Origin: an uncultured virus (IMG/VR IMGVR_UViG_3300045912_000307)
Taxonomy: Duplodnaviria; Heunggongvirae; Uroviricota; Caudoviricetes
Reading direction: 5' to 3' (one strand)
Virus record (IMG/VR): IMGVR_UViG_3300045912_000307
Length of the DNA stretch: 64,000 nucleotides
The position numbers and the translations under genes are program-made. Below are positions 2,452 to 60,500 of the stretch, piece by piece. Below the pieces are notes generated by a model. The model was not told where the DNA came from. It did no database searches and was given only the letters and a program-made list of their open reading frames with translations. The stretch's first letter is position 1, and the number at the start of each line of letters is the position of its first letter.

Positions 2452-2829
2452 ATGAAAGACAAAGTAATGTTCAATCTCTCAAACCATCCCAGCACCAAAT
2501 GGAATGGTGCACAAGCAGAAGCTGCTGCTGAATTTGAAGTAGTAGATTTTGCATTTCCTAATGTAGATGCTAGTGCTACTACAGAGGAAGTAAGAAAACT
2601 AGCTACTGATTTCTTTACTAACCTTAAAAATCAGTGGCGTGAAAAGTACATGGGTAAAAAACTCTACATCCATGTAATGGGTGAAATGGGTTTCGTTTAC
2701 AACTTTGTAGATGCTGCTAAACGTGAGGATTTTATTTGCGTTCACAGCACTACAGAACGTGTAGTTAAAGAGAATGAGGATGGCACTAAAACTAGTACTT
2801 TTGAATTTAAACAGTTCCGCAAGTACTAG
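2452..2829 (+). CDS. Csx20-like (CARF-derived) putative cOA ring nuclease
   Basis: NLSNHPS.KW...Q, FPNVD, HVMGE, STTER, F.F.QFRKY motifs resemble small type III CRISPR-associated ring-nuclease families (recognised by eye). Confidence 0.6.
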   Translation: MKDKVMFNLSNHPSTKWNGAQAEAAAEFEVVDFAFPNVDASATTEEVRKLATDFFTNLKNQWREKYMGKKLYIHVMGEMGFVYNFVDAAKREDFICVHSTTERVVKENEDGTKTSTFEFKQFRKY

Positions 2830-2866: not shown

Positions 2867-3001
2867 ATGGAAAAAGAATTTTTAACAGAGGAAGAGTTAA
2901 ACAACCTTCCTCAAGAAGAACCCATGGAAAGTCCACTAGCTGTGGATGATTACATGGATGATCTTCTATGGGCACATATTTCAGACTTAAACATTATGTA
3001 G
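2867..3001 (+). CDS. small acidic hypothetical protein
   Basis: 44 aa from ACACT-ATG at 2867. Confidence 0.6.
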   Translation: MEKEFLTEEELNNLPQEEPMESPLAVDDYMDDLLWAHISDLNIM

Positions 3002-3290
3002 CCCATTGCTAAACCCTGAAAGATGATAGCAGTAATGCTATACGTACCTTCTCCTTGAGCAAGAGATGAAATATAAAAGGTGCGAGGGAGTGCTCAGCTT
3101 GGCCCGACTTAGTTATTAATTATCAATTTAACGAGTAATAATTAATAACTAAAGGGCGCTAATTAACAACCAGTACCGAAAGGTGGTAGAAGCTGGTATT
3201 CAATTACTAGGACCTCAGGTAATTGAGCAGATGTTAGACTGCGTTATTGAGTAATCAATAATATCTAACCGTATCAGACGATTCTGATGT
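3001..3290 (+). ncRNA. unassigned highly structured RNA candidate
   Basis: GC-richer intergenic stretch with many stems, three GNRA tetraloops and a loop/downstream TGAGCA-TGCTCA pseudoknot. Confidence 0.65.
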
Positions 3291-3346
3291 TTGTATTTAT
3301 TTGTTTGTTTTTCTTTTTTTAACTTTCACTTTAACATCTTTTAACC

Positions 3347-4291
3347 ATGAAAACAATTCTTGTAATCTTCTTAGTAGCTATCGCTAATGTATTGATGGCT
3401 ACTGACTCTATTGTAGTTCGTTTTAAGTACAACTCTGATGTTGTCCCTACTATTAATATACCTAACGGTAAAGTAACTCGTATTGAGGGACATACTTGTA
3501 AGATCGGCGATGCTAACTATAACTTAGATTTAGCTAAACGCCGTGCAGTTAACACTCTTAACACCCTTATTTCTATGGGTGCTGAAATGAATGACTCAGT
3601 AGTAGTAGTTAGTTACGGAGAAGAAAGAGCTACTACTTACACTAGTGTTGATCGCAAAGTAGTTATCTACTATATAAGTAACAAACTAGAAAACGTTACT
3701 GGTAGTGTAGAAACTGCTGGTAATACTGATAATGTAGAAACTACTAACACTCAAAGTACTAATAATGAAATTCTAGCAGAAATGGATAGCATCAACTCTA
3801 AACCTCTTGATTTACCTGTTGTGGTTGCAAACGTAACAGTAAACTTTGAGGATAGAGTTCTTGATAATCCTCCTGCTGAAGAACAAGTTACATTCTGTGA
3901 CTGTGGTGATATTACTACTTATGACAAAAATACTGCTCGTTACTTTAATGCACTTGGAGCTAGAGCTAACAGCGTAGAAGAAGATATTTGCGCGCCTTAC
4001 TGCTATGCTAAAGCTCGTATGCTACAAGTAGGTTATGCTGATGAGAAAGTTAACAAAGCTCTTGATGTTATGCGCAGAAACATTCAAAGAGCTGAGTTGA
4101 AAGCTTCTCGTAAAGCTAAACACCAAGCTAAAGTTAAAACTAAAGTTAAAGCTCAGCGCAAAGCTAAAACTAAAGTTAAGACTAAAGCTGGTGGACAAAA
4201 GCGTAAAATAAATGTTAATAAATCAATTAGCAACTCTATTAGAGGAGCTAAGAGATGGATTAACATGACACTCGGTACTTGTATTAAATAA
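3347..4291 (+). CDS. secreted OmpA-C-like peptidoglycan-binding domain protein with Lys-rich tail
   Basis: Signal peptide; F.YNS, IEGHTC.IG...YN.DLA.RRA, SYGE, DRKV motifs; KAKTKVKT repeats. Confidence 0.75.
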   Translation: MKTILVIFLVAIANVLMATDSIVVRFKYNSDVVPTINIPNGKVTRIEGHTCKIGDANYNLDLAKRRAVNTLNTLISMGAEMNDSVVVVSYGEERATTYTSVDRKVVIYYISNKLENVTGSVETAGNTDNVETTNTQSTNNEILAEMDSINSKPLDLPVVVANVTVNFEDRVLDNPPAEEQVTFCDCGDITTYDKNTARYFNALGARANSVEEDICAPYCYAKARMLQVGYADEKVNKALDVMRRNIQRAELKASRKAKHQAKVKTKVKAQRKAKTKVKTKAGGQKRKINVNKSISNSIRGAKRWINMTLGTCIK

Positions 4292-4297
4292 TTACTA

Positions 4298-4370
4298 AGC
4301 AAGAGTAAGAGAAGACGTTCTTTTACTCTTGCTATTTAAGTAATAAAGAGAGACGTCTTTTTGTTACTTA
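4298..4370 (+). promoter_or_regulatory. tandem hairpins with identical GACG tetraloops
   Basis: 16-bp stem at 4298-4333 and 15-bp stem at 4337-4370, both capped by A-GACG-T. Confidence 0.6.
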
Positions 4371-5566: not shown

Positions 5567-5640
5567 GGTCTTGTAGCTCAATAGGTTAGAGCAGCGCACT
5601 CATAATGCGATGGTTTAGGGTTCAAGTCCCTACGAGACCA
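5567..5640 (+). tRNA. tRNA-CAT (probably Ile2, otherwise Met)
   Basis: Cloverleaf: acceptor GGTCTTG/CGAGACC, anticodon loop CTCATAA, T loop TTCAAGT; G1-C72 pair argues against initiator. Confidence 0.9.
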
Positions 5641-5643
5641 CTA

Positions 5644-5717
5644 GGCTCCATAGCTCAATTGGACAGAGCAACTGCCTTCTAAGCAGTCGGTTACAGGTTC
5701 GAGTCCTGTTGGAGTCA
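5644..5717 (+). tRNA. tRNA-Arg(TCT)
   Basis: Cloverleaf: GGCTCCA/TGGAGTC, ACTGC-CTTCTAA-GCAGT, TTCGAGT. Confidence 0.95.
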
Positions 5718-5745
5718 CTATTTTTTAACCATTAAAAGAAAAACT

Positions 5746-6745: not shown

Positions 6746-7439
6746 ATATTTTTGAGCCAATAAATAGGAAACTTTTATTGGGATTCTATCAAATTCGGTG
6801 AACTCTTAACAGGTAATGCTGAGGACAACGCCGAGCCAAGTTTTAATTTACGACCTCTCCATGTAGGAGTTAAAGCGTGACAATTAGGACACAATAATGT
6901 TAAATTTTGAATTTGATTGTTTGAATGATTACCATCAATATGCTCTAATTCTAGAGGTATTGGTTCACCCATCCACTCAGTTAAATTACAATTATAACAT
7001 TTATGTGCAAAATAGCCTTCTTTTAACAATCTACAACGTAACTTGTTTGATTGGTAATTAGAGTTAGCTACAAGAATTTCAGAAAGCGGAATACTTGTAT
7101 GAGGTTTAAACTTTAAACCTTTGTTCCAACCGCGATGAGTAAAATGAGAAACATCAATCTCGTATTGATTAATTTTCTTTTTAATTGTTGCATAATTACC
7201 TCCAGCTTTTTTAATTCCTAATTGAGTCATTATATTACGATAAGAATATGCTTTCTTACAAGCGTGTTCAAGTTGTTCTCTAGTGTACTTCATGTTTTAA
7301 AATTTAGTTGTAAGTTATAAAAGGTGTAGAGACTATACGGTAGATATCTAACCTGTAAAAAGTATGGTAAAGACATAGTCCAGACCACAAAGATACAAAA
7401 TAATTATTTTGTATTGCAGTGAAAACTGTAGTTGGTAAG
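6746..7439 (+). mobile_element. group I intron in the tRNA-Leu anticodon
   Basis: P1 U.G at the 5' splice site; P AAATTCGGTGAA (6791), Q AACGCCGAGC (6827), R GTGTAGAGACTA (7324), S AAGACATAGTCC (7370); P3 TCTATC/GGTAGA; terminal G7439. Confidence 0.9.
6775..7293 (-). CDS. HNH homing endonuclease (intron-encoded, antisense)
   Basis: CYNC...LELEHIDGNHSNN...NL.LLCPNCH motif; the only credible minus-strand gene in the window. Confidence 0.9.
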   Translation of the reverse strand: MKYTREQLEHACKKAYSYRNIMTQLGIKKAGGNYATIKKKINQYEIDVSHFTHRGWNKGLKFKPHTSIPLSEILVANSNYQSNKLRCRLLKEGYFAHKCYNCNLTEWMGEPIPLELEHIDGNHSNNQIQNLTLLCPNCHALTPTWRGRKLKLGSALSSALPVKSSPNLIESQ

Positions 7440-9794: not shown

Positions 9795-9984
9795 AATACA
9801 AATTGCCTCGTAAGTATAAGAGTGATAGTCTGATCCTTATTAGGATTACCATACTCTTGTAACTACGGATCTTCTCAAACATTTATAAATGCTATAGTTA
9901 TTGTTATTGAGAGAAGATCGTTATGGTTATAGTTATTGTATGGTTATAGTTAATTCTACTCTTATACTACGAGGTATTTGTATT
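9795..9984 (+). ncRNA. structured RNA candidate with GTTATN repeats
   Basis: ~27-bp closing stem 9795-9823/9958-9984, several inner stems, about 7 GTTATN-like units. Confidence 0.6.
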
Positions 9985-10001
9985 AAAACTAAATTGAAAG
10001 A

Positions 10002-13762: not shown

Positions 13763-13765
13763 CCC

Positions 13766-13867
13766 TATAAGCTTCAAATTTGGCTTTTAAGACACTTTAA
13801 ATTACCAGTAGTAGTATTATACTATAAATTAATTATAAGCGCTTAAAAACGAAATTTAGAGCTTATA
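13766..13867. repeat. structured intergenic element, copy 2
   Basis: TATAAGCTT/GAGCTTATA terminal inverted repeat; TTTTAAGACACTTTAAATT...AATTATAAGCGCTTAAAA core. Confidence 0.7.
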
Positions 13868-13881
13868 CAACCATCTTAACC

Positions 13882-18044: not shown

Positions 18045-18358
18045 AAGAGATAACTAAAGCATTTGATTTCTTATGTGAACATCAACCTAATATCAAATAC
18101 TTATTTACTATTAATGTTACAGATAGTAAAGTACCTACTGTCATAGACTTTGAAACTAAAATTGAAGATCTTGAACAAATGATTAATAAGATTGATAATT
18201 TAGGAGAACAGATTTCAGACTTCAATTATGAAATTAGAGTTTATGATGCTAATGCTTATCGAAATAATCAACCTTCTTTAGTTTATACTAAAAAGAATGA
18301 AGTTCCTAACCCTTTAGTTAGAAAACTAGCTTTACAAGCATTGAAGAATTTAAATTAA
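18041..18358 (+). CDS. hypothetical protein
   Basis: ATGA-coupled ORF. Confidence 0.7.
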   Translation: MKEITKAFDFLCEHQPNIKYLFTINVTDSKVPTVIDFETKIEDLEQMINKIDNLGEQISDFNYEIRVYDANAYRNNQPSLVYTKKNEVPNPLVRKLALQALKNLN

Positions 18359-18606
18359 TGGCTACTACTGGTATATACGGTATATGCTGTAATAATAAAT
18401 GGTATATAGGTTCTTCTGTGAATGTTGAAATGCGTTTAAGCAAGCATAAGAGTTTATTAAAAGATAATAAGCATTATGTTAAAGGCTTACAAGAAGCATA
18501 TAATAATAAGCAACGTATTAAGTTCAAGATTCTTAAACGTTGCTCGCAGAAGAACCTTAACCATTTAGAAATAGAGTATATACATAAATATAAAGCATAT
18601 AGATAG
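18358..18606 (+). CDS. minimal GIY-YIG endonuclease domain protein (possibly frameshifted)
   Basis: GIY...WYIGSS...R...H...E motifs. Confidence 0.8.
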   Translation: MATTGIYGICCNNKWYIGSSVNVEMRLSKHKSLLKDNKHYVKGLQEAYNNKQRIKFKILKRCSQKNLNHLEIEYIHKYKAYR

Positions 18607-29947: not shown

Positions 29948-32000
29948 TACTTATGTTTACGATATTGAAACTTTAACTAATTTTTTTTCAGCAGTATTTC
30001 TAGATATTCAAACTAAAGAGATTTACATATTTAAGATTTACAGTACAGATACATCAGAGTTAAATCAATTAGATGAGCTTATCAGCTTTTTGCAGAAATG
30101 CAAAGGGCTGATAGGCTTTAATAATTTAGCTTTTGACTTTCAAGTATTAGAAAGTATTATACAAAACTATACTAAGCTTAAACATAAATCAACTAAAGAT
30201 ATAGTATCAGATATATATAGTTATGCACAAGAGCATATTGAAAGAGAAATTCCTAAAATTCATCCTAACAAGTTTAGTATTCCTAATTTAGACTTATTTA
30301 AACTTAATCACTTTGATGGTAAAGCTAAACAAGGAGTATCTCTTAAATGGTTACAATACGTCTTAGATTATGATAATGTACAAGACATGCCTATTCATCA
30401 CACTAGTAGAGTTAAAGATGAAGATATTGATTTAATTATTGAGTATAATATTAATGATGTAAAGTCCACTTATCACTTTTATGAATTATGTCATGATAAG
30501 CTAGATTTAAGAAGAACATTAAGTAAACTATATAACATTAACTTAATGAATGCTTCTGAACCTAGAATAGTAAAAGAAACTATGTTAATAGATATGTCTA
30601 AATCTATGGGAATAGATAAAGACGTTTTAAAAGAAATGAGAACTAAACGTGATAAAATATGCTTTGATGAAATAATCTTTGACTATGTAAAGTTTGAATC
30701 TAAAGAATTTAATGCTTTGTTAGAGTTTCTTAAACTACAATGTATAACTGAAACTAAAGGTGCTTTTTCTAAGATTACTAATAAGACTAAAGGTTTTGAG
30801 TTGATTAGAAAGTATATACCTAATGATTCAGAGTTTATTAAACTTGATAAAAAAGGAATTACTGTTAAGAAACTAGCTATAAAATTTGATAATGAAATAT
30901 ATGTGTATGGTACTGGTGGTATTCATAGTTATTTAAAGAATAGACTTGTTATACCTAAAGATGATGAGTTAATACTAGACTTAGATGTAGAAAGCTATTA
31001 TCCTAATTTGTGTATTAAGAATAAACTAAGACCTGAGCATTTAGGTGAGCATTTTACTGAGTTGTATGAGAATTATTTCTTAATGCGTAAGAAGTATCCT
31101 AAGAAAACAGCTATGAACACTTTTTATAAGCTTATTTTAAACACTCTTTATGGTTTAAGTAATGAAGAAAATAGTTTTTTATATGACCCTAAAATGACTA
31201 TGAGTATTACTCTTAATGGTCAATTACTACTTTCTATGCTTATTGAAAGATTAGTATTACATACTAATAGTAAATGTGTAGCTGCTAATACTGATGGTGC
31301 TACTTTTGTAATTAAAAAAGATGAACTAGAGTTGGTTAAAAGTATTGTATTAGAGTGGGAGAATCTTACTAAGCTTAAAATGGAAGAAGCTTACTATGAT
31401 AAGTTAATATTTAGAGATGTTAATTCTTATATATGGTTAGGTAAATCTAAACCTAAATTAAAAGGATTCTTTGAATATAAACCAGAAATTATTGAGTATC
31501 ATAAAAAGCATTCTATGCCTATTGTACCAGAAGCTATTGTTAAATACTTTACTGAAGGTACTGATGTAATAGACTTTATTAGAAATTGTAAAGACGTATT
31601 TAAGTTTAAAATAGGCGTTAAAGCTAAAGGAAATAACAAGTATGAATATAGGGTTTATGATAAAAATTTAAATCTTATTAAAAGAGATCCGGGTAAAGTA
31701 GTAAGATATTACGTGAGTACTAAAGGTGGTCAATTAATGAGAATAATGCCTCCTATTGTTAAAGCAGATAAAGATCCCAATCAATTAAGAATGTTTGATG
31801 ACGTTGAATTAAAGAATAGAGAATCTAATCAAGAAGCTGGTTATAAAGTTAAAATATTTAATAAATATAATTCAAATGAAAAGCTATTTATTAATTACAA
31901 CTATTATATCAAACAAGCTTTAAGTATTATTAAAAAGTTTGATATGGATTATTATAAGAAATGTATATCAAGATTAAAGTCGGAACAACAAAAGTTATGA
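29919..32000 (+). CDS. polB: DNA polymerase family B
   Basis: Exo YDIET, GFNN..FD; Pol DVESYYPN, KLILNTLYG, ANTDG. Confidence 0.95.
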   Translation: MEQPLQKVNSTYVYDIETLTNFFSAVFLDIQTKEIYIFKIYSTDTSELNQLDELISFLQKCKGLIGFNNLAFDFQVLESIIQNYTKLKHKSTKDIVSDIYSYAQEHIEREIPKIHPNKFSIPNLDLFKLNHFDGKAKQGVSLKWLQYVLDYDNVQDMPIHHTSRVKDEDIDLIIEYNINDVKSTYHFYELCHDKLDLRRTLSKLYNINLMNASEPRIVKETMLIDMSKSMGIDKDVLKEMRTKRDKICFDEIIFDYVKFESKEFNALLEFLKLQCITETKGAFSKITNKTKGFELIRKYIPNDSEFIKLDKKGITVKKLAIKFDNEIYVYGTGGIHSYLKNRLVIPKDDELILDLDVESYYPNLCIKNKLRPEHLGEHFTELYENYFLMRKKYPKKTAMNTFYKLILNTLYGLSNEENSFLYDPKMTMSITLNGQLLLSMLIERLVLHTNSKCVAANTDGATFVIKKDELELVKSIVLEWENLTKLKMEEAYYDKLIFRDVNSYIWLGKSKPKLKGFFEYKPEIIEYHKKHSMPIVPEAIVKYFTEGTDVIDFIRNCKDVFKFKIGVKAKGNNKYEYRVYDKNLNLIKRDPGKVVRYYVSTKGGQLMRIMPPIVKADKDPNQLRMFDDVELKNRESNQEAGYKVKIFNKYNSNEKLFINYNYYIKQALSIIKKFDMDYYKKCISRLKSEQQKL

Positions 32001-42763: not shown

Positions 42764-43781
42764 ACACTATTACATGCCATTTGAATATCAAGATTTGTTT
42801 GATTTATCTATAGTACAAAGAGATGTTCATTGGGTAGAATCAGCTACACCTATGCAATCTGATGTTCAAAATTGGGAAAAGGATTTAACTCCTGCTGATA
42901 AAGAAGTAGTAGGCGGGATATTAAAGATGTTTACTCAAGCTGAAGTACTAGTAGGTGATTATTGGAGATTAGTTGCTAAATGGTTTCCTAAACCTGAAAT
43001 TGCAGCTATGGCTACTACTTTTAGTTACTTTGAAGCTATTCATCAAAAAGCTTATGCTCATTTAAATACTACTTTACACTTAGATGATTTTAAAGCATTT
43101 ATGCAAGATGAAACAAACATGAATAAACTAGATCTTTTATTTAAGAACCTAGATGTTATTGTGTTTGACGAACAAGATCATCAAGTGCTTAACTTAAATC
43201 TTTCTTATAATGAAATTGTAAAGTACAATCCTAAACTAGCTGATAAGTTAAAAAGAGTAGCTACTAGTTTAGCTGTATTTTCAGCATATACAGAAGGAGT
43301 ATTAATCTTCAGTTCATTTGCTGTACTATTAAGTTTTAAAACAAAGAACTTATTAAAAGGAGTAGGTAAAATTGTAGAGTATAGTATTAGAGATGAGAAT
43401 ATTCATAGTATAGGTGGTATTAACTTATTTAGAAAACTATGTAACGATATTCCTGGATTACATGAAGCTGTTAAAAATGATATTATTAATACTGAAAAAA
43501 TAGTAGTAGAACTAGAACATAAATTCATTGATAATGTGTTTGGTGATTATTCTAGTATAGCTACTCTTGATAAGAATGATTTAAAAGAATTTGTAAAGTA
43601 TAGAACAGTGCTTAAAACAAAAGAACTAGGTTATAGTTCAAATATAACTTATAATAAAGAAGCTATTAGTAGAATGAATTGGTTTGATGCTTTAAGTTCT
43701 GGACAACAATTTACAGATTTCTTTGATACAAAACCAACCGATTATACAGAAATAAACTATACAACTGAACAACTTTGGTAA
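42747..43781 (+). CDS. nrdB: ribonucleotide reductase class I beta subunit
   Basis: FTQAE, EAIH..AY, EG..IFSSF, RDE.IH. Confidence 0.93.
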   Translation: MILIPRHYYMPFEYQDLFDLSIVQRDVHWVESATPMQSDVQNWEKDLTPADKEVVGGILKMFTQAEVLVGDYWRLVAKWFPKPEIAAMATTFSYFEAIHQKAYAHLNTTLHLDDFKAFMQDETNMNKLDLLFKNLDVIVFDEQDHQVLNLNLSYNEIVKYNPKLADKLKRVATSLAVFSAYTEGVLIFSSFAVLLSFKTKNLLKGVGKIVEYSIRDENIHSIGGINLFRKLCNDIPGLHEAVKNDIINTEKIVVELEHKFIDNVFGDYSSIATLDKNDLKEFVKYRTVLKTKELGYSSNITYNKEAISRMNWFDALSSGQQFTDFFDTKPTDYTEINYTTEQLW

Positions 43782-46513
43782 TGATAAAAGGTATTGATTA
43801 TCCTGAATGGTTAACAGAAGAAGGTTTAACCACTTTAAAACGTCAGCATTTGCTTCCTGGAGAAACTCCTAATCAAATGTATAGTAGAGTAGTAAACTCA
43901 TTAGCAAGCTATCTAAAGCTAAATAATGAAGAAATAGAGGTAATTAAATCCAAGTGGTTAAGTTATTTACATAAGGGATGGCTATGTTTAGCTACACCTG
44001 TAGCAGCTAATACTGGTACTCAAAGAGGTTTACCTATTAGTTGTTATGTACTTAGAGTACCTGATAGTCTTGAAGGTATTTATGATAAAGCTAAAGAAAT
44101 GGCTTTATTAACTAAGATGGGAGGAGGAGTAGGTGTAACACTTGATAAAATTAGAGGTAGTGGTAGCCCTATTAGTACAGGAGGATTTAGTAGTGGTATA
44201 CCGCCATTTGCTAAAGTGTATGAATCTAGTATATTAGCAGCTAATCAAGGTGGTGTACGAAGAGGAGCAGCTAGTCTTAATTTACCTATTAGACATAAAG
44301 ATATTAAGTGGTTTCTTAATATGCGTAAGTCTAAGGGTGATATGAATAGACAATGTCCAGCTATTAATCACTGTGTTACTATTGACGATTACTTTATGCA
44401 AGATATAGAAAATGGTAATGCAGAAGCTAGAGAATTATGGGCAGAACTACTATCAGTTAGAATGAGTACTGGTCAACCTTATATATTCTTTTATCATAAT
44501 GTAAATAATAATAGACCTAAAGTATTTAAAGATAAAAACTTAAAAATTGATGGTACTAATATTTGTTGTTTAGCAGGCGATACAGAGGTTATTACTAAAG
44601 AAGGTATCTACAAGATAAAAGATTTAGTAGGTAAAGAAGTTACTATTTATGATGGTAAAAACTGGGTAAAATGTGATAATTTTAAAGAGTATAACGAAGA
44701 CGAGCTTTGGGAAATAACTTTAAAAAATGGACAAAAACTAAAAGCTAATGCTGATCATAGATGGTTTGTAGCAAATACCTATGAAAATATTCGTGATAAA
44801 CGATATAAAACAACAAAAACAATAGAATTAAAAGAAGGACAATGGCTTGAGGATTCTATAAAACAAGCAGAATATCATGGTGATAAAACTATGAAAGGAG
44901 CTTATTTAAAAGGATTTTTAATAGCAGACGGTACTTCTGATGAAAATGAACCGATACTTAACCTGCATTTTACTAAATATCAATGTGCCAATAAACTAAT
45001 AGAATCTTATTTAGAAATAGATAATGGAGTAAAGAATACAAATGCGATAGACACCGTTAGTTTTAGTGATGAGATTATTAATCCAAATCAGCTTGGAAAG
45101 CAACGCTTTAAAAGAATGAGAGGTTTAACAATTAAAAAAGATGATCTAATTAACTTTGCTTCTATTTATAAAAAAGAATTGCCGGATTTTAGAGATTTAG
45201 ATAAAGAATCTAAAATTGAATTTTTAAGTGGATTATTAGATGGTGATGGGACTTATACGACATCCGGTATACAAATTTCATCTATACATTTGGAGTTTAT
45301 TAAAGAGTTACAAAAACTAATCTTTAGTTTTGGATATAATGCTTCAATAGATGTCTGTGACTTTAAAGATAGAAATTCTATATACCGACTGACAATAGGT
45401 TCCTACGATTCCTATCAATTAATTCAAGAATTAAAATGCGTGCGATTAGAAATCCCTGAAATAGAACCTAATAGAAGAACTACTGGGCATAGACAAATCG
45501 TAAAAATTGAAAAACTTAATTATAAAGAAAAAGTATATTGTCCACAAATTCCAACTACTAAAAAGTTTCTATTAGCTAATGGAGTACTAACAGGTAATAC
45601 TGAAATACTTCTACCTCATCATTATGATTTAACAGTAGTATGTTGTTTATCTAGTGTTAATCTAGCTAAATGGGATGAGTTTAAAGATGATAATGAGTTT
45701 ATTATTAACTCTTTACTTTTTTTAGATTGTGTAATATCAGAATTTATTGATAGAGCTAAAGCATATCCTGGTACACAGAACGCTATTAGATTTGCAGAAA
45801 AATCAAGATCAATTGGATTAGGAGTATTAGGTTTCCATACTTATTTACAAGAAAATAACATACCCTTTGCTAGTATTACTGCTAGATCTATAGCAACTAA
45901 AATTAGTAAGTACTTTAAAGAACAAGGAGTTTTATACCAAGAAAAGTATTCAAAATTATTAGGAGAACCAGAATGGTGTAAAGGATATAATATGAGAAAC
46001 AGTACTTTGTTTGCTATAGCACCTACAACTACTAATGCTTTAATAAGTGGAGGAGTAAGTCAAGGTATAGAACCTATTGTATCAAATGCTTATGCTCAAC
46101 AAAGTGCTAAAGGTACGTTTATTAGAAAAAATCCTACTTTTCAAAAACTAATTGAAACTAAATATCCTCAGTATAATACTCCTGAAATGTGGAAAAGTGT
46201 AGAATTAGCTAAAGGATCTGTTCAGCATTTAGAATTTTTAGATAATGAAACTAAAGAAGTGTTTCTTACAGCTTATGAGATTAATCAACTTGAATTGATT
46301 AAGTTAGGTGCTATTTGGAATAATATGACAGATCAAGGTGTTAGTCTTAATTTATTCTTTCCACATGATGTAAATCCTAAATGGTTAAATAATTGTCATT
46401 TAGAAGCGTGGAGATTAGGTATTAAGACTTTGTATTATGTTAGGACAGAAAGTATAGCAAGTAGGTTAATGAGCGATAAAACATTTAGTAACTGTTTAAT
46501 GTGTGAGGGGTAA
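43781..46513 (+). CDS. nrdA: ribonucleotide reductase class I alpha subunit with intein
   Basis: TAATG-coupled start; ATPV..N, PISC, GGG.G, NIC[intein]TEI, APT, DQGVS.N, KTLYY, C-terminal CLMCEG. Confidence 0.95.
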   Translation: MIKGIDYPEWLTEEGLTTLKRQHLLPGETPNQMYSRVVNSLASYLKLNNEEIEVIKSKWLSYLHKGWLCLATPVAANTGTQRGLPISCYVLRVPDSLEGIYDKAKEMALLTKMGGGVGVTLDKIRGSGSPISTGGFSSGIPPFAKVYESSILAANQGGVRRGAASLNLPIRHKDIKWFLNMRKSKGDMNRQCPAINHCVTIDDYFMQDIENGNAEARELWAELLSVRMSTGQPYIFFYHNVNNNRPKVFKDKNLKIDGTNICCLAGDTEVITKEGIYKIKDLVGKEVTIYDGKNWVKCDNFKEYNEDELWEITLKNGQKLKANADHRWFVANTYENIRDKRYKTTKTIELKEGQWLEDSIKQAEYHGDKTMKGAYLKGFLIADGTSDENEPILNLHFTKYQCANKLIESYLEIDNGVKNTNAIDTVSFSDEIINPNQLGKQRFKRMRGLTIKKDDLINFASIYKKELPDFRDLDKESKIEFLSGLLDGDGTYTTSGIQISSIHLEFIKELQKLIFSFGYNASIDVCDFKDRNSIYRLTIGSYDSYQLIQELKCVRLEIPEIEPNRRTTGHRQIVKIEKLNYKEKVYCPQIPTTKKFLLANGVLTGNTEILLPHHYDLTVVCCLSSVNLAKWDEFKDDNEFIINSLLFLDCVISEFIDRAKAYPGTQNAIRFAEKSRSIGLGVLGFHTYLQENNIPFASITARSIATKISKYFKEQGVLYQEKYSKLLGEPEWCKGYNMRNSTLFAIAPTTTNALISGGVSQGIEPIVSNAYAQQSAKGTFIRKNPTFQKLIETKYPQYNTPEMWKSVELAKGSVQHLEFLDNETKEVFLTAYEINQLELIKLGAIWNNMTDQGVSLNLFFPHDVNPKWLNNCHLEAWRLGIKTLYYVRTESIASRLMSDKTFSNCLMCEG
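44567..45598 (+). mobile_element. intein with LAGLIDADG homing endonuclease (344 aa)
   Basis: N-terminal CLAGDTEV, block B ANADHRW, GFLIADG and FLSGLLDGDG, C-terminal ANGVLTGN|T. Confidence 0.92.
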
Positions 46514-53284: not shown

Positions 53285-56200
53285 ATGGCGATAATAAGTG
53301 GGTTTAAATCAGCTACAGTAGATGATGTTAAGCCGTTTCAGCTACCTATAGATGAAATGGCAAAAGGTTTATTAGCAATTGATACTAGAGCTACTGCAGC
53401 AAAAAACGCTTTAGCTACTGCTACAAGTTCTTTAAACATACCCCTTCGTGATAATGTTGAAGATTGGAATCTATTTGATACTATTGTAAAAGAATTTGAT
53501 CAAGAGAAGAATAAATTAATAGATTCAGTAGGCGGTGATTTTTCTAAGTTAAATATTGCAGATTTACAAAAATTAGCTTTAGATAAAGCACAAGATCATA
53601 GATTTAGACAATTAGTAAGTGCTAAGAAAAATGCTGATGAGTTTCAAGAGCAATTGAATAAAATGCAAGCTGCTGGAAAAGTACCTGTAACTTTTGGTAT
53701 TAATCCTCTTTATGATTCTCTTTATGATGAAAACGGTAGATTTAGATTTATGAATCAGTATGAAATAATGGAAGATCAAGATATAGAAGAACCTGCACAA
53801 AAAATGTTTAATAATTTAGGTCATAGTCTTGAAGAAGCTATTAAATGGCATCATAGTTCTGCTTTCTTAACTAAAGAGCAGCAAGAACAATTCTGGTATG
53901 ATTTCTGGCAAAAAGACTGGTCTAAAATTAAAGATAATTATCCTAACATTTCTGCTGTTATTAAAGATGGAGCTAAACAATTGATGAATGAACCAGCTGG
54001 TAGAGTTCATCAAAGAAAGCTTTATACTATGTATTCTAAGCAGTTTCCAACTAAGTCCAGACAGGAAGTTGATCAAATGATCGAAGATGACTTTGCTAAA
54101 ATCTTAATAAGAATTGGTAATTCTAGAAGAATAAGAGAATTAAATAAAACAAGTGATAGAAATTATAATCAAAAACCACAACAACCTTCTGTAGGTTCAC
54201 CAGGTATGCCTTCTGGTAAAGGATCAAAAGTAGAAGCACCAGAACGTTTGAATATTAAAGCGCAAGAGTTTACATATACAGCTCCTGGATTTAATTACTT
54301 AAATCAAATAAGTCCTGGTGAAGCTTCAAGACATATTCTTAATACTGATATTAATCTTGCTAATTCAGGTATTAACTGGTCTCAATTCGATCCAGCTAAC
54401 ATTGGTTCTATTGATAATATTAACTTGTTAGGTCAGTACTTATTAGCTGTACCTACTTTTGATAAAAAGATAGAAGTTAAAGGTCTTGGTGGATTTGATT
54501 TTGCAGGAGGTATTTATCAAGCTGCGCAAAATACAGTAATAATTGGTGGTAATGAAAAAGAAAAATGGAGAAATAATCCTACTGTGTTACCTATGCTTAA
54601 AGGTGATAATTTTGGATCAGCTGTAACATTACCTACTGGATATTTTATGGCAGATGGTAAAAGTTACAATGACATTCTTAATAACAATGATATTGCTTAT
54701 AATACAATTAGACAAGCTATTGAAAATAATCAAACTTATATTCTTGAACAAGATTACGCTAGAGCTTTAGCTAGAGAAGCTGGTGTTACTAGTGATAAAG
54801 ATAAAAACTACGTTGAAACAATGAAAACAGTTTCTGCTATTATTCAGCAACGTAGAAACTTTTCTCAAGGTAATTCAATGTATAATTTTAATATTAATCC
54901 TGATACAGGATTACCAAGTATTGGTGTAGATAAAACTCTTTACACAGTATTACAACTATTAGACGAAGATCGTAAAGAAGTAGATGCTGAAGGTAAACCT
55001 ACTCGTGCTGCACAATTAGCTGAACTACGTTATCAAAAACTAAGTGCTAAGATTAAAGCTGCTGAAGAATTTAGAAACAATTCAGGTAGAGCTTACTTTG
55101 AAAAAGCTGAAGCTACAATGAGAACTAAAGCTGAACAAGCTGCTACTTTTGATATGATTGATGATACTCATAGAGTAGCTGCTGGTATGAAAGAAAATGA
55201 ATACTTTATTATGGGTAATGAAGGAAAGAAAAGTAAACTAGAGGATAAAAAAGAAGCAGATATATTGTATAAAAAAGCTATAGTGACAACTGCTTACGCT
55301 ATGAGTAATTCTTCAATTAGCGGTGTTAGATTTAAACTTGACTATGCTGATTTGTCTGAAAGTACAGATAGTCTAAAAAATAAATTAGGAGATACTATGT
55401 TAAATATTACTGAAAAGATCTTAAGAAGAGAATTTCGTTTAGAAGATTATTTAACAAAAGAAGAAATAGAAGAAGGTACATCTGATCGTCTTTGGAGTTT
55501 TGTATTATCAAAATCATTATTATCTAAGTTTTTTAGTGAAATAGAAATAGAAGAGTTAGAAAAACAGGGAGTTATTAGGGGAGGTTTTTCAAGTATGGCA
55601 AACCCTATTTTATCAGATATAGCTCACCTGTTATATTACTATTTTGAACCTGATAGTAGCGGTAAGACAATTACTTACACTAACCAAGAAGCTCCTAATG
55701 AATATAATCAAAAACTTCAATCATCAATTATCGAAAGTTTAAAGCAAAACAAAAGCATATCACCAGCTGCTTTAAGATATTATGAATCACTAACTAAATC
55801 TAAATTAAATAGAGAAGCAGCTTTAACATACAGAATGTTTAATGAAACAGATCCTGATACTAAACACTATGCTGAAAATATTAAAAGTTTAGTTGTTAAT
55901 AAAATAATGGCAGATGGTACAGCTGATACTCCTATCTATAGAGCTCATTATAATAGTAACAACACTAAAGTATTAAGAGAACAAGCTCCTATTCACTTGT
56001 TAAAAGATCAGCTTAGAGAGTTATACGATAAGATTAATGAGAAGAATACTACAGGTAAACTACCTTCTTATGAAGATTTTATTAAAGACTCTGTTACAGT
56101 ACTAGGAGTTACATGGGAACCAGGTCAAACAGGTTCTGATGACGGATGGGTAGTTGGTTTTCAAGTAACAATTGATGGTACTAAACACCATTGGCAAATA

Positions 56201-56725
56201 CCAGTATCTCAAACAGAATTACCAATGACTGTAAGAACTATGTTAGGTTTTGATAATCTTGAGTTAAAGTATTCTCCTATTGTCCAACAAAGTTTAAAAC
56301 AAAATGGAGGATTATTTTATGATTTAGATTCTAGAGCTGAAGGAAGCAGTCCTATGAGAGTTTTTGTAGCTCATGCTCCTATGACTTTACGAGGTGTAAA
56401 TGGTGATATGGTTTCATTACAAGTAGGTCAAAGATATATTATTGGTTCAGGTAACCCTGCTATAGATCCGACAAACGCTTCAGAAGCTGGTATTCGTGCG
56501 TTTAAAAACGATCATGAAGCCTGGATGTATTATGATAGAAATAAAGCTTACGGTAAAAACTATCATGATTTAGTGTTTTTAAATAGCATATTAAAACAAA
56601 TGGCTTTAGCTAGATCGCCTCAAGAAAAACTAGCTATATCATATAGAATGACTGGTAAATATTTAAGTGAAGAAGCAATTAGAGCATTGATGCTTAAAAA
56701 AGCTGAAGAAAACCGGTCAAAGTAG
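53285..56725 (+). CDS. large putative virion (ejected/cargo) protein
   Basis: 1146 aa; size and position like crAss-type virion cargo genes; no recognisable motif. Confidence 0.7.
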   Translation: MAIISGFKSATVDDVKPFQLPIDEMAKGLLAIDTRATAAKNALATATSSLNIPLRDNVEDWNLFDTIVKEFDQEKNKLIDSVGGDFSKLNIADLQKLALDKAQDHRFRQLVSAKKNADEFQEQLNKMQAAGKVPVTFGINPLYDSLYDENGRFRFMNQYEIMEDQDIEEPAQKMFNNLGHSLEEAIKWHHSSAFLTKEQQEQFWYDFWQKDWSKIKDNYPNISAVIKDGAKQLMNEPAGRVHQRKLYTMYSKQFPTKSRQEVDQMIEDDFAKILIRIGNSRRIRELNKTSDRNYNQKPQQPSVGSPGMPSGKGSKVEAPERLNIKAQEFTYTAPGFNYLNQISPGEASRHILNTDINLANSGINWSQFDPANIGSIDNINLLGQYLLAVPTFDKKIEVKGLGGFDFAGGIYQAAQNTVIIGGNEKEKWRNNPTVLPMLKGDNFGSAVTLPTGYFMADGKSYNDILNNNDIAYNTIRQAIENNQTYILEQDYARALAREAGVTSDKDKNYVETMKTVSAIIQQRRNFSQGNSMYNFNINPDTGLPSIGVDKTLYTVLQLLDEDRKEVDAEGKPTRAAQLAELRYQKLSAKIKAAEEFRNNSGRAYFEKAEATMRTKAEQAATFDMIDDTHRVAAGMKENEYFIMGNEGKKSKLEDKKEADILYKKAIVTTAYAMSNSSISGVRFKLDYADLSESTDSLKNKLGDTMLNITEKILRREFRLEDYLTKEEIEEGTSDRLWSFVLSKSLLSKFFSEIEIEELEKQGVIRGGFSSMANPILSDIAHLLYYYFEPDSSGKTITYTNQEAPNEYNQKLQSSIIESLKQNKSISPAALRYYESLTKSKLNREAALTYRMFNETDPDTKHYAENIKSLVVNKIMADGTADTPIYRAHYNSNNTKVLREQAPIHLLKDQLRELYDKINEKNTTGKLPSYEDFIKDSVTVLGVTWEPGQTGSDDGWVVGFQVTIDGTKHHWQIPVSQTELPMTVRTMLGFDNLELKYSPIVQQSLKQNGGLFYDLDSRAEGSSPMRVFVAHAPMTLRGVNGDMVSLQVGQRYIIGSGNPAIDPTNASEAGIRAFKNDHEAWMYYDRNKAYGKNYHDLVFLNSILKQMALARSPQEKLAISYRMTGKYLSEEAIRALMLKKAEENRSK

Positions 56726-57503: not shown

Positions 57504-60500
57504 ATGAATGAAGATATACTCAATAAGATAGCTGAAGACCAGAAAGAATATGATCAGTTTCTTAAGAGTCAACAAGAGAAATTACAAGGTTCTATTCCTC
57601 CTCCATCTTCTACAGGAGAAATAGGTAATGTAGGTAGTAATGCTCCTTTTATACCTAAAGTACCTAAAGAAGTAACGTATCAACAATCTGTTAATAATTA
57701 CTTCAATAGCACTTCTATTGAAGATCAAATGAAAGAACTTGAAGATGTTCTAGCTAAGAAAAAAGAGTTAGAACAATTACAAGAAATGTATAAAGAAGAT
57801 AAATGGGGTGTTGATTGGAAAAAAAGATATGAAGATGAAGGATCTGGTCCTTCATCAGCTAGTACTATATTTGATTCTGATTATGCTGAATACGATAGAT
57901 TACGTGTTACTGATAGAAGAGATCCTGAATATTTACAAGAACAATTAGCAGCTAATCAAAGTACTAGTGAGCAATTAGGAAGAGGTCTTAATAAGTTGTT
58001 TTGGAATACATTGTATCAAACTGTAGGTGGTATAGGTGCAATGTTTGATTTTGAAGACCATTTTAATCAAGATGATGAAGTAGGTAACTGGTTAACTGAT
58101 TGGGCAAATAAGCAACAACAAGCTGTTGATGATGCTAACAAAATATATAAATCAAACAATAGATCATGGTCTTCATTAGCATGGTGGATAGATAATGGTG
58201 TTAATCTAGCATCTAGTATGTTATCATTTGCAGCGCAAGGTGCTGCTTTAGGTTATGCTCTATCACCTCTTAAGTTTGTACAGTTTTTAAGTAAAGGTAA
58301 AAAGTTAGCTGAGACAGCTGCTGCAGCTGAAAAAAGTGGTAAGCTTTTAAAAGCTGCTCAAAAATTTGAAGATGGTGCTAAAACTTTTATTACATCTGCT
58401 ATGCTAAATCAAGCAGAATCTATTATGAGTGCTACTGATGTTTACAGTAGAACTTATAAAGAAGCTATTGATAGAGGTTATTCTGATGAATATGCTAGAA
58501 AAGTTGCTGCAGCATCTGCTACACAAACTATTGCTGTTAATAAAGCTAACATTATGCTTAATTTAACCTCAGCTAATATGTTTACTAGAGGTTTTAAATC
58601 AGTAGCAGATGCTTATAAACAAAGCTTATGGAAACAAAGTTTAAAAGAAGCTATACAAGAATCTGCTGAAGAGCTTATTAATATGAAAGCTGAAAAAGCA
58701 GGTGAAGAAATTGCAAAAACTTACATGGATAACTCTTTCTTTAGTGGTCCTGATAAAATTCAAATTGGTGATTTAAAAATAACTCCTGAAACAGCAAGAT
58801 ATAATGCACAAGCTGAAGCTAATAAAACAGATGTAAGATATAAAGCACAAGACCTAGGAATATTTACTCCTATGGTTCAGTCTATGTATAATAGTAAAAC
58901 AGGAAATTTTAATCCGTTTTATAATATAGAAGCTGGTGAAGCATTAGAAACAGTATTTTGGGGTGCTTTAGGTGGAGCAGGACAAACTGCTATTGTTAAA
59001 GGCGGATTAGATAAGCTTGGATCATCTGAAGGATTTCTTTCTAAAATACCAGGTGTAGGTGCTTTAAATGAAAAACTATTTGGTAGTGAAATACATAAAG
59101 TAGCTGAAGAAGATGTTTACGATCCTTACAGTGGTACTTTGTTATTTAGAAAAGGAGAACCTATGTATGAAACTCAAAATGCTACATACAAAGAAAATCA
59201 AGCTTATCAAGAAGGAGATATTATCACTGAAGATATAAAAGATAAAGATGGTAATGTAATTCTTAAGGTAGAAAAAGATGATCAAGGTAAGCCTATTCCT
59301 ACTTCTATAACAGAGGAACAAGCTGCTAATCTTGCTAAAGCTAATGTTTATAAACATAAAGCTGGTGATGTTATTACAAGAGAAGTTTACGATGAAAATG
59401 GTGTACTTAAAGAAGTTATTACAGCTAAAGAATTAAAGTTAGATGAGAAAGGTCAACCTATTCTTGTTAAAGAAGTAGGTAAAGACGGTAAACCACGTAA
59501 GTATAGTAAAAGTGAGATGGAAGAAATTAACTATCAAAGACAGCTAGCTAAAGAATCAGAAATGAAAAGTCAAGCTGTAGCTCAAGCAAAACTTATTGCT
59601 TCAGCAGAACTTAAAAGAGCTGTTGACGATGTTAATACACAACTTGAAGAATTAAGAAGTAGAAACTGGGAAAATAAAGAAGATCAAAAAGATTTCTTAT
59701 TAACTAAGTTATCTAAAAATATAGCAGCTGTAGAATTAGCTACAGAAGGTAATACTAATATTACTACTGAAATGCTTGAAGCTAAAGAAAAAGAAATAAG
59801 AGCTAAGCTTGAAGATCCTAGTTTTGATTTAAATGAGTTAAATGCTATTCAAACTAAATACGCTGCTTTATCTCACTATAATACTACTCTTAATGCAATT
59901 GATAATGGTCAAGAAGAAATGTTATTAAGAATATGGGATGATATTGGTAAAATGACTAAAGAACAAGCAGCTGAAAAAGGTTTACCTGATAATTATGCTG
60001 AAGTAGCAGAACAACAAAAAGCTGAAATAAAAAGAATATCTAACATTTACTACAGTAATAGAATGAAAAAAGGTTATGCTGTAGGTAGAGCTGCTACAAT
60101 GAATAGATTAAGATATGAACAAAATGAAAAAATACTTAGTAAGATTAACGATGATATAGATAAAAGACATGATGAAGCTTTTCAAAGATACTTAAAGTAC
60201 AATAAAGTGCCTAAAGAATTAGAACTAGAGCACAGAGAGAAGTTTAATGAAATGATTCAAAAACGTAGAAAACTTGATGAAGAATTAGAAAATGATCCTG
60301 AACTTAATAAAATAGCTAAAGAAATTGAAGATCTTAAAAAGAAAAGAAATGAATTAGAAGAAAAGATTAAACAGGAAGCAGAGAATAGAAAAAAGAAAGA
60401 AGATGTAGCACTTAAAGAAAAACAAATTCAAGAAGCTAAAGCTAAATTGCTAGATGATCTTAAAAAAGCTTTAGCTGCAGAATTAGCTAGACCACCCGAA

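Follow-up and report, generated by a model that had tools for sequence, protein, structure and literature searches.

Immediately downstream of a small ORF and a gene for a Csx20-like protein, an uncultured phage carries a 345-nt gap (3002-3346, from the stop codon of the small ORF, orf44, to the ATG of an OmpA-like gene), which raises the question of whether the gap holds a non-coding RNA, and if so what the RNA would do in its transcript. The phage is represented by a single 64-kb stretch of DNA, referred to here as the window. Stop codons crowd all six frames of 3002-3346, and the GC content of the RNA region is 0.40-0.42 against 0.30-0.34 in the flanks, as expected from an earlier sequence-only reading that had described a GC-richer gap without an ORF; the excess is modest, since other 200-nt windows reach 0.44. 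Based on the absence of an ORF and of an Rfam family, a cluster of GNRA-capped hairpins and compensatory changes, 3002-3300 on the + strand is treated as a candidate structured non-coding RNA of ~290 nt.

All genes in the window lie on the + strand, the sole exception being one HNH endonuclease. Those identified encode PolA, a primase, a DnaB-like helicase, a ligase, ribonucleotide reductase and endolysin-like domains, alongside two tRNAs and an ORF that exceeds 2165 aa and is cut by the window end. Judged by its proteins, the phage appears very divergent and far from known phages; its DNA polymerase is ~34% identical to the best INPHARED match, and the giant ORF has no match in INPHARED. Public sequencing runs that contain this stretch are labelled as hot-springs or microbial-mat metagenomes. 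The host is probably a member of the Bacteroidota, since the phage genes lack Shine-Dalgarno sequences and, going by record titles, about 70 of the top 80 bacterial relatives of the Csx20-like gene belong to Bacteroidota.

The Csx20-like gene (2452-2829, + strand, 125 aa) matches NCBIfam profile NF040559 (CAS_Csx20, a cA4 ring-nuclease family) over its full length (1-124/124; E 5.1e-14), with a score of 52.7 bits that lies below the curated cut-off of 70 bits. The same profile is matched by 10 of 10 members of the small family to which the ORF belongs (precomputed label PF27247), in which the motifs NxSNHPS, GE and TTER are invariant. An AF2 model of the protein (pLDDT 94.2), with a beta-alpha-beta order, predicts a CARF-like Rossmann fold. 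Its best Foldseek match is the CARF domain of Cam1 (E 2.2e-4, TM 0.41), followed by the Csm6 CARF, while the ring nuclease Sso2081 stands at rank 38 (E 0.012, TM 0.38); these TM-scores are modest. A bacterial Csx20 is a confirmed ring nuclease that degrades cyclic tetra-adenylate, cA4 (bioRxiv 10.1101/2024.09.24.614671), and phage csx20 homologues are among the genes proposed to act in counter-defence (PMC13551039). Together, the profile match, the CARF-like fold and these reports support the ring-nuclease-like label that had been given to this gene, the second upstream of the RNA. The csx20-like gene is a probable anti-type-III-CRISPR gene that would share a transcription unit with the RNA.

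Orf44 (2867-3001, + strand), which lies immediately 5' of the RNA candidate, translates into a strongly acidic product of 44 aa and ends in a TAG at 2999-3001, past which its frame continues for just 5 further codons. Among 5.8 billion proteins it has no homologue but itself, and it has no Pfam or Atlas match. It is probably a real gene, because in the variant strain described below three of its four substitutions fall in third codon positions and its one 3-nt deletion is in frame. On the other side of the RNA, the OmpA-family gene (3347-4291, + strand, 314 aa; Pfam PF00691, E 2.9e-8) begins at an ATG of its own (3347) with what resembles a signal peptide, and a canonical terminator-like hairpin stands behind it at ~4298-4335 (within the sequence 4292-4340). 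Upstream of the Csx20-like gene, ORF 1939-2406 has sub-threshold structural neighbours only in the Atlas, and a strong terminator-like hairpin occupies 1852-1894.

A terminator scan listed nothing between this strong hairpin and H8, the last hairpin of the RNA candidate. The promoter search found no promoter-like site between 2830 and 3010, no sigma-70-like site upstream of the RNA candidate and no repeated k-mer motif, and TAnnTTTG is not enriched (89 found, 106 expected). With no terminator-like site between 1852-1894 and the RNA and no promoter-like site before the RNA, the simplest transcription unit may comprise ORF 1939, the csx20-like gene, orf44 and the RNA, and it may extend through the OmpA-like gene to the hairpin at ~4298-4335. 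In this phage, RNA genes more generally appear to be parts of polycistronic messages, as the genes for tRNA-Met and tRNA-Arg (5567-5718, by ARAGORN) follow an ORF at a distance of 13 nt.

A string search found every motif of the sequence-only reading, either in place or at most 2 bases off, and on the + strand these motifs form the helices that we refer to as H1 to H8. The 5' domain (3014-3088) is a predicted three-way junction, closed by CCCU 3014-3017 and AGGG 3085-3088 (CCCT and AGGG in the DNA) and holding H1 and H2. Exactly as first drawn, this junction is the MFE structure of the isolated 5' domain; the long hairpin and the hairpins 3' of it, too, adopt the folds given in that reading. 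Folded alone, it has a z-score of -1.0, and 32 of 200 shuffles fold equally well. H1, noted as TAGCA-GTAA-TGCTA (3027-3040), can be extended to 6 bp (3026-3041); it has a GUAA loop and a pair probability of 0.87-0.97 at 37-60 C. H2 (3043-3050 / 3077-3084) joins CGTACCTT at 3043 to AAGGTGCG at 3077 with one G-U pair, and continues inwards with CUC/GAG (3051-3053 / 3063-3065). A candidate pseudoknot (3056-3096) would pair the loop UGAGCA (3056-3061) with UGCUCA (3091-3096). This complementarity is present in the letters (TGAGCA at 3056, TGCTCA at 3091), and the partner is ambiguous because TGAGCA occurs twice (3056, 3224), the second UGAGCA (3224-3229) competing for the same UGCUCA.

The long hairpin H3 (3102-3157) has a GCCC/GGGC base (3102 and 3154) around a perfect, A-U-rich stem of 15 bp (3109-3123 / 3138-3152) and a 14-nt loop. 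With a z-score of -5.1, none of 200 shuffles folding equally well and a pair probability of 0.85-0.97, it is the sole part standing out by z-score among the parts folded. Further 3', H4 (3169-3197) pairs ACCAG at 3169 with CUGGU at 3193 (CTGGT in the DNA), enclosing the hairpin UACC-GAAA-GGUG (TACC-GAAA-GGTG, 3174-3185) and a 7-nt 3' bulge, GUAGAAG. H4 is in the MFE structure of the 3' domain and competes with a pairing of CAGCUU 3095 with AAGCUG 3190, which is preferred at 50 C and above. H5 (3200-3226), formed by TCAATTAC at 3200 and GTAATTGA at 3219, folds into an 8-bp stem UCAAUUAC/GUAAUUGA with the 11-nt loop UAGGACCUCAG; its pair probability is 0.83 at 37 C and drops to 0.28 when the temperature is 60 C, and a 5-bp GUAA-capped hairpin at 3214-3227 is an alternative to it. 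H6/H7 (3233-3269) consists of GUUAGA 3233 / UCUAAC 3264 (GTTAGA/TCTAAC) enclosing an 8-bp GUAA-capped hairpin at 3243-3262, with a pair probability for H7 of 0.84-0.97.

The last element, H8 (3271-3320), is a hairpin of 6-8 bp, AUCAGA-CGAU-UCUGAU plus two G-U pairs (ATCAGA at 3273, TCTGAT at 3283), followed by a broken U-rich tract with the tail GUUUGUAUUUAUUUG. Its pair probability is 0.87-0.94. The stem holds 2 G-C pairs, one fewer than the rule of the terminator scan, which did not list it, and it is weaker than the clear terminators of this phage. H8 is a candidate for a weak terminator or attenuator. Over the whole candidate, long-range pairings and the preferred global fold shift between 37 and 50 C, and several pairings are mutually exclusive: H4 against CAGCUU/AAGCUG, H5 against the 3214-3227 hairpin, and two copies of UGAGCA for one UGCUCA. 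One loop, AGGACCU, comes close to being self-complementary.

Mutually exclusive pairings in H4, in H5 and between the two UGAGCA copies, a position directly upstream of a gene, and a hairpin with a U-tract at the end could together indicate a riboswitch-like or protein-responsive attenuator, in which the 5' junction and pseudoknot would act as the sensor for a ligand or protein, and H8 termination as the switch that controls the OmpA-like gene. We consider this improbable. No known riboswitch family or aptamer matches, the putative aptamer would lie ~180 nt and four hairpins away from H8, no anti-terminator partner for either H8 arm was seen by eye, and H8 itself is weak.

The sequence-only reading had proposed that the RNA is new, and in a covariance-model scan of the 4227 families of Rfam 15 we found no match to 3002-3300 at the gathering score and none that is meaningful at E<=10. 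In the whole window, the scan recovered two tRNAs at 5567-5718 and nothing else. The best permissive hit in 2900-3400 places mir-582 on H3 at E 0.058, scoring 22.5 bits where the gathering score is 84, and the remaining five hits there have E >=1.5. Its statement that the RNA is neither tRNA nor tmRNA agrees with ARAGORN, which calls only the tRNA-Met and tRNA-Arg mentioned above. A group I or II core had been discounted as well, and no intron model gives a hit at E<=10; the RNA is not an intron, since no gene is split and each flanking ORF starts and stops with codons of its own. The only unit that by eye resembles a group I P7-P8 (3233-3269) leaves 1-2 nt for J8/7, which in group I introns is usually 5-7 nt. 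A T-box leader, defined by Stem I with its specifier loop and by a UGGN antiterminator bulge placed 5', was likewise rejected, with no hit at E<=10. The heptamer GGUGGUA (3182-3188), which we take to resemble the T-box sequence, lies on the 3' side of a hairpin. All by-eye likenesses, to group I introns, hammerheads, C/D-box RNAs, sarcin-ricin motifs and T-boxes, failed either inspection or the Rfam scan.

These searches also bear on the idea of a new self-cleaving or self-processing ribozyme, which would free itself or neighbouring RNAs from the polycistronic transcript. The predicted topology of a junction plus pseudoknot and the GNRA loops resemble ribozymes in general, and RNAs embedded in long transcripts, as they appear to be here, must be processed. 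However, no ribozyme model, group I and II introns included, reaches E<=10, no gene is interrupted between the flanking ORFs, and no conserved catalytic-core motif is recognisable, which makes a ribozyme the least probable of the readings considered, an extremely faint one.

Whether the structure exceeds chance depends on the measure, as folding energy and loop identity disagree: the energy is not distinctive and the loops are. The RNA region folds with an MFE of -79.9 kcal/mol on the + strand and -78.0 on the - strand, corresponding to z-scores of -3.4 and -3.9. Such energies are ordinary for this genome, in which 100 windows over 1-20 kb have an average z of -2.2 (sd 2.0) and 12 of them fall below -4.7. 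The early region is generally rich in structured intergenic hairpins.

As to the loops, the three GNRA tetraloops originally claimed are present, and an alternative fourth was found; the region has four GNRA-capped hairpins of at least 4 bp (GUAA 3032, GAAA 3178, GUAA 3251 and the alternative GUAA 3219). A count of four occurs in only 8 of 6370 + strand windows of 300 nt, each of them overlapping the RNA region, as do 26 of the 30 windows with three or more. The maximum on the - strand is two per 300-nt window. Nowhere else in the 64-kb window are GNRA-capped hairpins so densely clustered as in the RNA region, and this holds for the + strand only. Further, the five G-U pairs in H2, H4, H7 and H8 would be A-C mismatches on the opposite strand. 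An RNA made from the + strand is favoured because both the GNRA cluster and the G-U pairs are specific to that strand. Elsewhere in this phage, ordinary hairpins and terminators have GNRA caps as well; among tetraloop hairpins of at least 5 bp, GNRA loops make up 34 of 712 on the + strand and 13 of 623 on the - strand.

A variant strain, seen in contigs of two other runs, provides a comparison (runs of equal size may be identical data filed twice). One variant contig (545 nt) matches 2867-3320 with 13 substitutions and 14 gap letters, and is unlike the window upstream of 2867; a contig from the second run has the same first five substitutions. The variants within the RNA rest on this one contig of low depth (3.9, a single run). 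Nine substitutions fall within the RNA, none of which breaks a proposed helix, and this favours an RNA structure. In H1, 3030 C>U and 3037 G>A together turn a C-G pair into U-A, and 3033 U>A changes the loop from GUAA to GAAA, which is still GNRA. In H3, substitutions at 3110 and 3149 and deletions at 3112 and 3151 leave the stem pairing perfect, while nine further deleted bases, 11 altogether, halve the loop to 7 nt. Rebuilt by script, the variant H3 is a perfect hairpin of 13 bp + 4 bp if the listed place is taken as the first deleted base; the other convention gives one mismatch. The other substitutions (3025, 3106, 3162, 3164) lie in predicted single strands. By a rough estimate, nine random substitutions over ~73 pairs would yield a compensatory pair at a chance rate on the order of 0.03-0.06. 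By this alignment, H1 and H3 are preserved by compensatory change in one variant.

The variant is uninformative on H4-H8 and on the candidate pseudoknot, because 3165-3320 is identical in variant and window. This identity of the 3' half may reflect recombination history instead of constraint, since divergence declines from left to right, from 7/84 at 2450-2533 through 4/135 in orf44 to 2/231 at 3328-3558.

It is against this evidence that the absence of any RNA-level function has to be weighed, with 3002-3300 being a hairpin-rich spacer or a DNA element; the latter may be a site of replication or recombination, a set of protein-binding palindromes, or what is left of terminators or promoters. 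Consistent with such an origin are the ordinary MFE z-score, a - strand that folds about as well, similar or stronger palindromes in other intergenic regions of the phage, and the form of H3, a perfect A-T-rich inverted repeat of the kind that DNA-binding proteins use. In addition, one strain variant is known and no homologue beyond it in the searched collections, and compensatory change within a palindrome can arise at the DNA level too. However, the GNRA loops and G-U pairs mark the + strand specifically, the GC content exceeds that of the flanks, and a DNA site needs neither a GUAA to GAAA change that keeps the GNRA class nor the compensatory pair in H1. On balance we find the absence of an RNA-level function unlikely.

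The collection of homologues that the sequence-only reading had called for yielded the variant strain with its compensatory pair, but no further homologue. There is no paralogue of the RNA within the window, where its loops have only chance-level antisense matches of 8-9 nt elsewhere, and blastn against INPHARED and PLSDB gave no match. Pattern scans of IMG/VR with four patterns returned 0, 0, 2 and 0 stretches, the two being chance hits of high GC, and a scan of JGI metagenomes with one, possibly ill-chosen, pattern returned 9 stretches in 8 loci, none with extended similarity. These pattern scans need exact words, so relatives below ~90% identity would escape them. Two single-sequence covariance models, R1 and R2, recovered only the window itself from 1.25 Mb of csx20 loci (other hits E >=5.5), and R2 found the RNA in none of five whole IMG/VR records. 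BLAST of the RNA in five genomes matched the A-T-rich H3 alone, and BLAST against 401 sampled Bacteroidota genomes gave matches of 19-36 nt in 9 genomes (E 0.0025-0.01 each), none of which extended. The RNA has no match in the 9 IMG/VR loci and 80 bacterial loci that carry csx20 homologues. In the 9 IMG/VR loci, small unrelated ORFs follow the csx20 homologue; one long gap in such a locus has the look of a terminator cluster and no likeness to the RNA.

These absences weigh on the leading alternative, that of a stable, compact RNA acting in trans, cut or terminated from the early transcript and binding a protein or small molecule. It may, for example, serve as a decoy or sponge that works with the Csx20-like nuclease against type III CRISPR or another defence. 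Such a role is suggested by at least 8 helices, by 3-4 GNRA loops able to make tertiary contacts, by the possible pseudoknot, and by a peripheral hairpin whose length varies while its stem is conserved, as is typical of large folded RNAs; the location in an early accessory region, beside a Csx20-like gene of a counter-defence-linked family, would suit it too. Set against these points, the RNA has no likeness to the CRISPR repeats of csx20-bearing bacteria, it has no match in the other csx20 loci or the five whole IMG/VR records, a promoter of its own was not found, and GNRA caps also occur on ordinary hairpins and terminators of the phage. We regard a trans-acting RNA as on the unlikely side, and its strongest form, a new class of trans-acting phage RNA directed at host immunity together with a viral Csx20 ring nuclease, as very improbable. 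A member of such a class might be a cyclic-oligoadenylate sponge, or a decoy for type III effector or ancillary proteins.

We prefer, at a probability of roughly 0.4, to read the RNA as punctuation for the early csx20-orf44 transcript, either as its folded tail or as an intercistronic module. The RNA would be made from the + strand as the tail of an early phage message that carries a 155-aa gene, the Csx20-like gene and the 44-aa acidic ORF, and that may read into the OmpA-like gene. Its fold would have three parts: the 5' three-way junction, a long spacer hairpin that varies in length, and, on the 3' side, a row of GNRA hairpins that ends in a weak hairpin and U-tract. The stable hairpins would act in cis, shielding the upstream anti-defence message from 3' exonucleases, while read-through into the next gene would be halted in part, or marked for processing, by the last hairpin; shielding and partial stop would together set the relative levels of the flanking genes, and the folded piece might persist as a stable RNA. 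Co-transcription, the RNA ends and the stabilising or attenuating role may all be as outlined here, and are inferred from the sequence.

A punctuation module is favoured because there is no ORF, no promoter-like site ahead of it and no terminator listed before H8, and it would fit an early region generally rich in intergenic hairpins. Arguing against it, H8 fails the terminator scan for want of a third G-C pair, and a multi-domain fold of 290 nt far exceeds what an mRNA stabiliser usually needs. Regardless of role, 3002-3300 probably holds a structure selected on the + strand, with the ordinary MFE z-score and a 5' junction no better than shuffles arguing to the contrary. Of the novel folded RNA first proposed, the non-coding character, the place outside Rfam and the keeping of two hairpins stand, whereas its folding energy proved ordinary for the genome. 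There is reasonable support for a folded RNA that Rfam does not contain, and its status is that of a lead, in which two predicted hairpins are supported by one strain variant. Should it prove real and have a function, a very divergent phage of hot springs or mats would carry, in a probable anti-type-III-CRISPR operon, a structured RNA of ~290 nt that belongs to no family. To our knowledge, only a few non-coding RNAs of such a size are understood in phages, and we know of none that cooperates with a viral ring nuclease.

Among known systems, the large ornate RNAs ROOL, GOLLD, HEARO/omega RNA, OLE and raiA, all of which we take to be Rfam families, offer a first comparison. Similar to ROOL- and GOLLD-type RNAs, the candidate has multiple helices, is rich in GNRA loops and richer in GC than its surroundings, and occurs in a phage, with tRNA genes 2.3 kb away. 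Unlike them, it has no covariance-model hit and no IscB or TnpB neighbour, and it is much smaller than ROOL or GOLLD.

RNA anti-CRISPRs, reportedly described by Camara-Wilpert et al. in 2023, are said to be solitary repeat units. The candidate resembles them as a non-coding RNA beside a candidate anti-CRISPR gene in a phage, and differs in being far longer than one repeat and in having no similarity to csx20-associated CRISPR repeats. The latter were represented by 62 repeat candidates (consensus ...TTCCATTAAAACAAGGATTAAGAC) from 42 of the 80 csx20-bearing bacterial loci, from which the repeats of the host may differ. The best local score of the RNA against them is 20, whereas the null mean is 22.6; of 200 random pieces of the window, 95.5% reach that score of 20. 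An RNA anti-CRISPR was rejected for the 62 tested repeats, the likeness being no better than that of random window pieces.

Structured intergenic phage RNAs as such are a known kind of object, of which this one is so far an orphan. Fremin and Bhatt describe 8495 candidates of 29-151 nt from IMG/VR, with covariation in at least three distinct sequences (Fremin and Bhatt, 2023; PMC10690425). Like these, the present candidate was picked out by that logic as a phage intergenic region in which hairpins are predicted and no ORF occurs, while it differs from that collection, as its authors characterise it (PMC10690425), in its ~290 nt, in its single near relative and in not being found by the four pattern scans of IMG/VR; it may still be identical with one of the 8495. 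Aca-bound RNA motifs located within 5' UTRs of anti-CRISPR operons are described as hairpins of ~20 nt bound by HTH proteins (PMC13551039). What they share with our candidate is the setting: the operon with the structured RNA contains csx20 in some phages of that report (PMC13551039); the candidate differs from the motifs, as given there, in its length of 290 nt, in its position on the 3' side and in having no recognisable HTH or RHH gene, orf44 being acidic.

Finally, intrinsic terminators and intercistronic stabilisers consist of one or two hairpins, in contrast to the at least 8 helices, the junction and the weak terminal hairpin of the candidate, which nevertheless resembles them in its 3' hairpin with a U-rich tract and in hairpins that appear to be kept by compensatory change.

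Besides the main RNA (the candidate structured non-coding RNA at 3002-3300), a second ORF-free structured element was found at 9795-9985 on the + strand, based on its predicted fold, in which several hairpins are enclosed by a long-range closing stem of ~28 bp. Its predicted MFE is -66 kcal/mol (z -6.5), none of 200 shuffled sequences was as stable, and it exceeds the main RNA in thermodynamic strength. In the scan of the whole window, no Rfam family reached its gathering score in this element. Across 100 windows of 300 nt over 1-20 kb, the mean folding z-score was -2.2, and therefore the genome overall is unusually structured on the + strand. A further 20-bp hairpin with a GAAA cap lies at about 30075-30118 (+), inside the coding sequence of the DNA polymerase (PolA).

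Two related intergenic regions on the + strand, 1040-1190 and 13763-13881, precede the ORFs starting at 1191 and 13882 respectively, and have in common a ~90-nt element with 75% identity. The core of this element is TTTTAAGACACT, with an inverted copy ~40 nt downstream (1068-1079 on the + strand and 1120-1131 on the - strand). The shared element could act as a promoter-operator, or it could be a regulatory hairpin that occurs more than once. Throughout the window, Shine-Dalgarno sequences are absent at start codons, and TTAAC(C/T) often precedes the start.

The ribonucleotide reductase large subunit (912 aa, 43775-46513, +) contains an inserted segment at residues 372-546, which suggests an intein or a homing endonuclease insertion, as the segment matches an endonuclease PHROG. 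Free-standing homing-endonuclease-like genes are also present, namely an HNH endonuclease gene at 6775-7293 (phrog_10822, E 4e-50), which is the sole gene on the - strand within the first 20 kb of the window, and an 82-aa ORF at 18358-18606 (+) with an N-terminal GIY-YIG-like motif recognized by eye. Two large + strand ORFs, at 53285-56725 (1146 aa) and 57504-63998 (>2165 aa), were given neither a PHROG nor a Pfam family, and the latter had no tblastn match in INPHARED.

Upstream of the main RNA, the phage-borne gene at 2452-2829 (+) encodes a Csx20-like CARF protein according to its profile match and predicted fold, and the virus may therefore use its product as a ring nuclease or an anti-CRISPR. 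We found 247 relatives of this protein in GTDB species representatives, and the majority of the best 80 belong to Bacteroidota, as judged from the taxa in the record titles. Many of these best relatives adjoin arrays with the repeat ...AAGGATTAAGAC.
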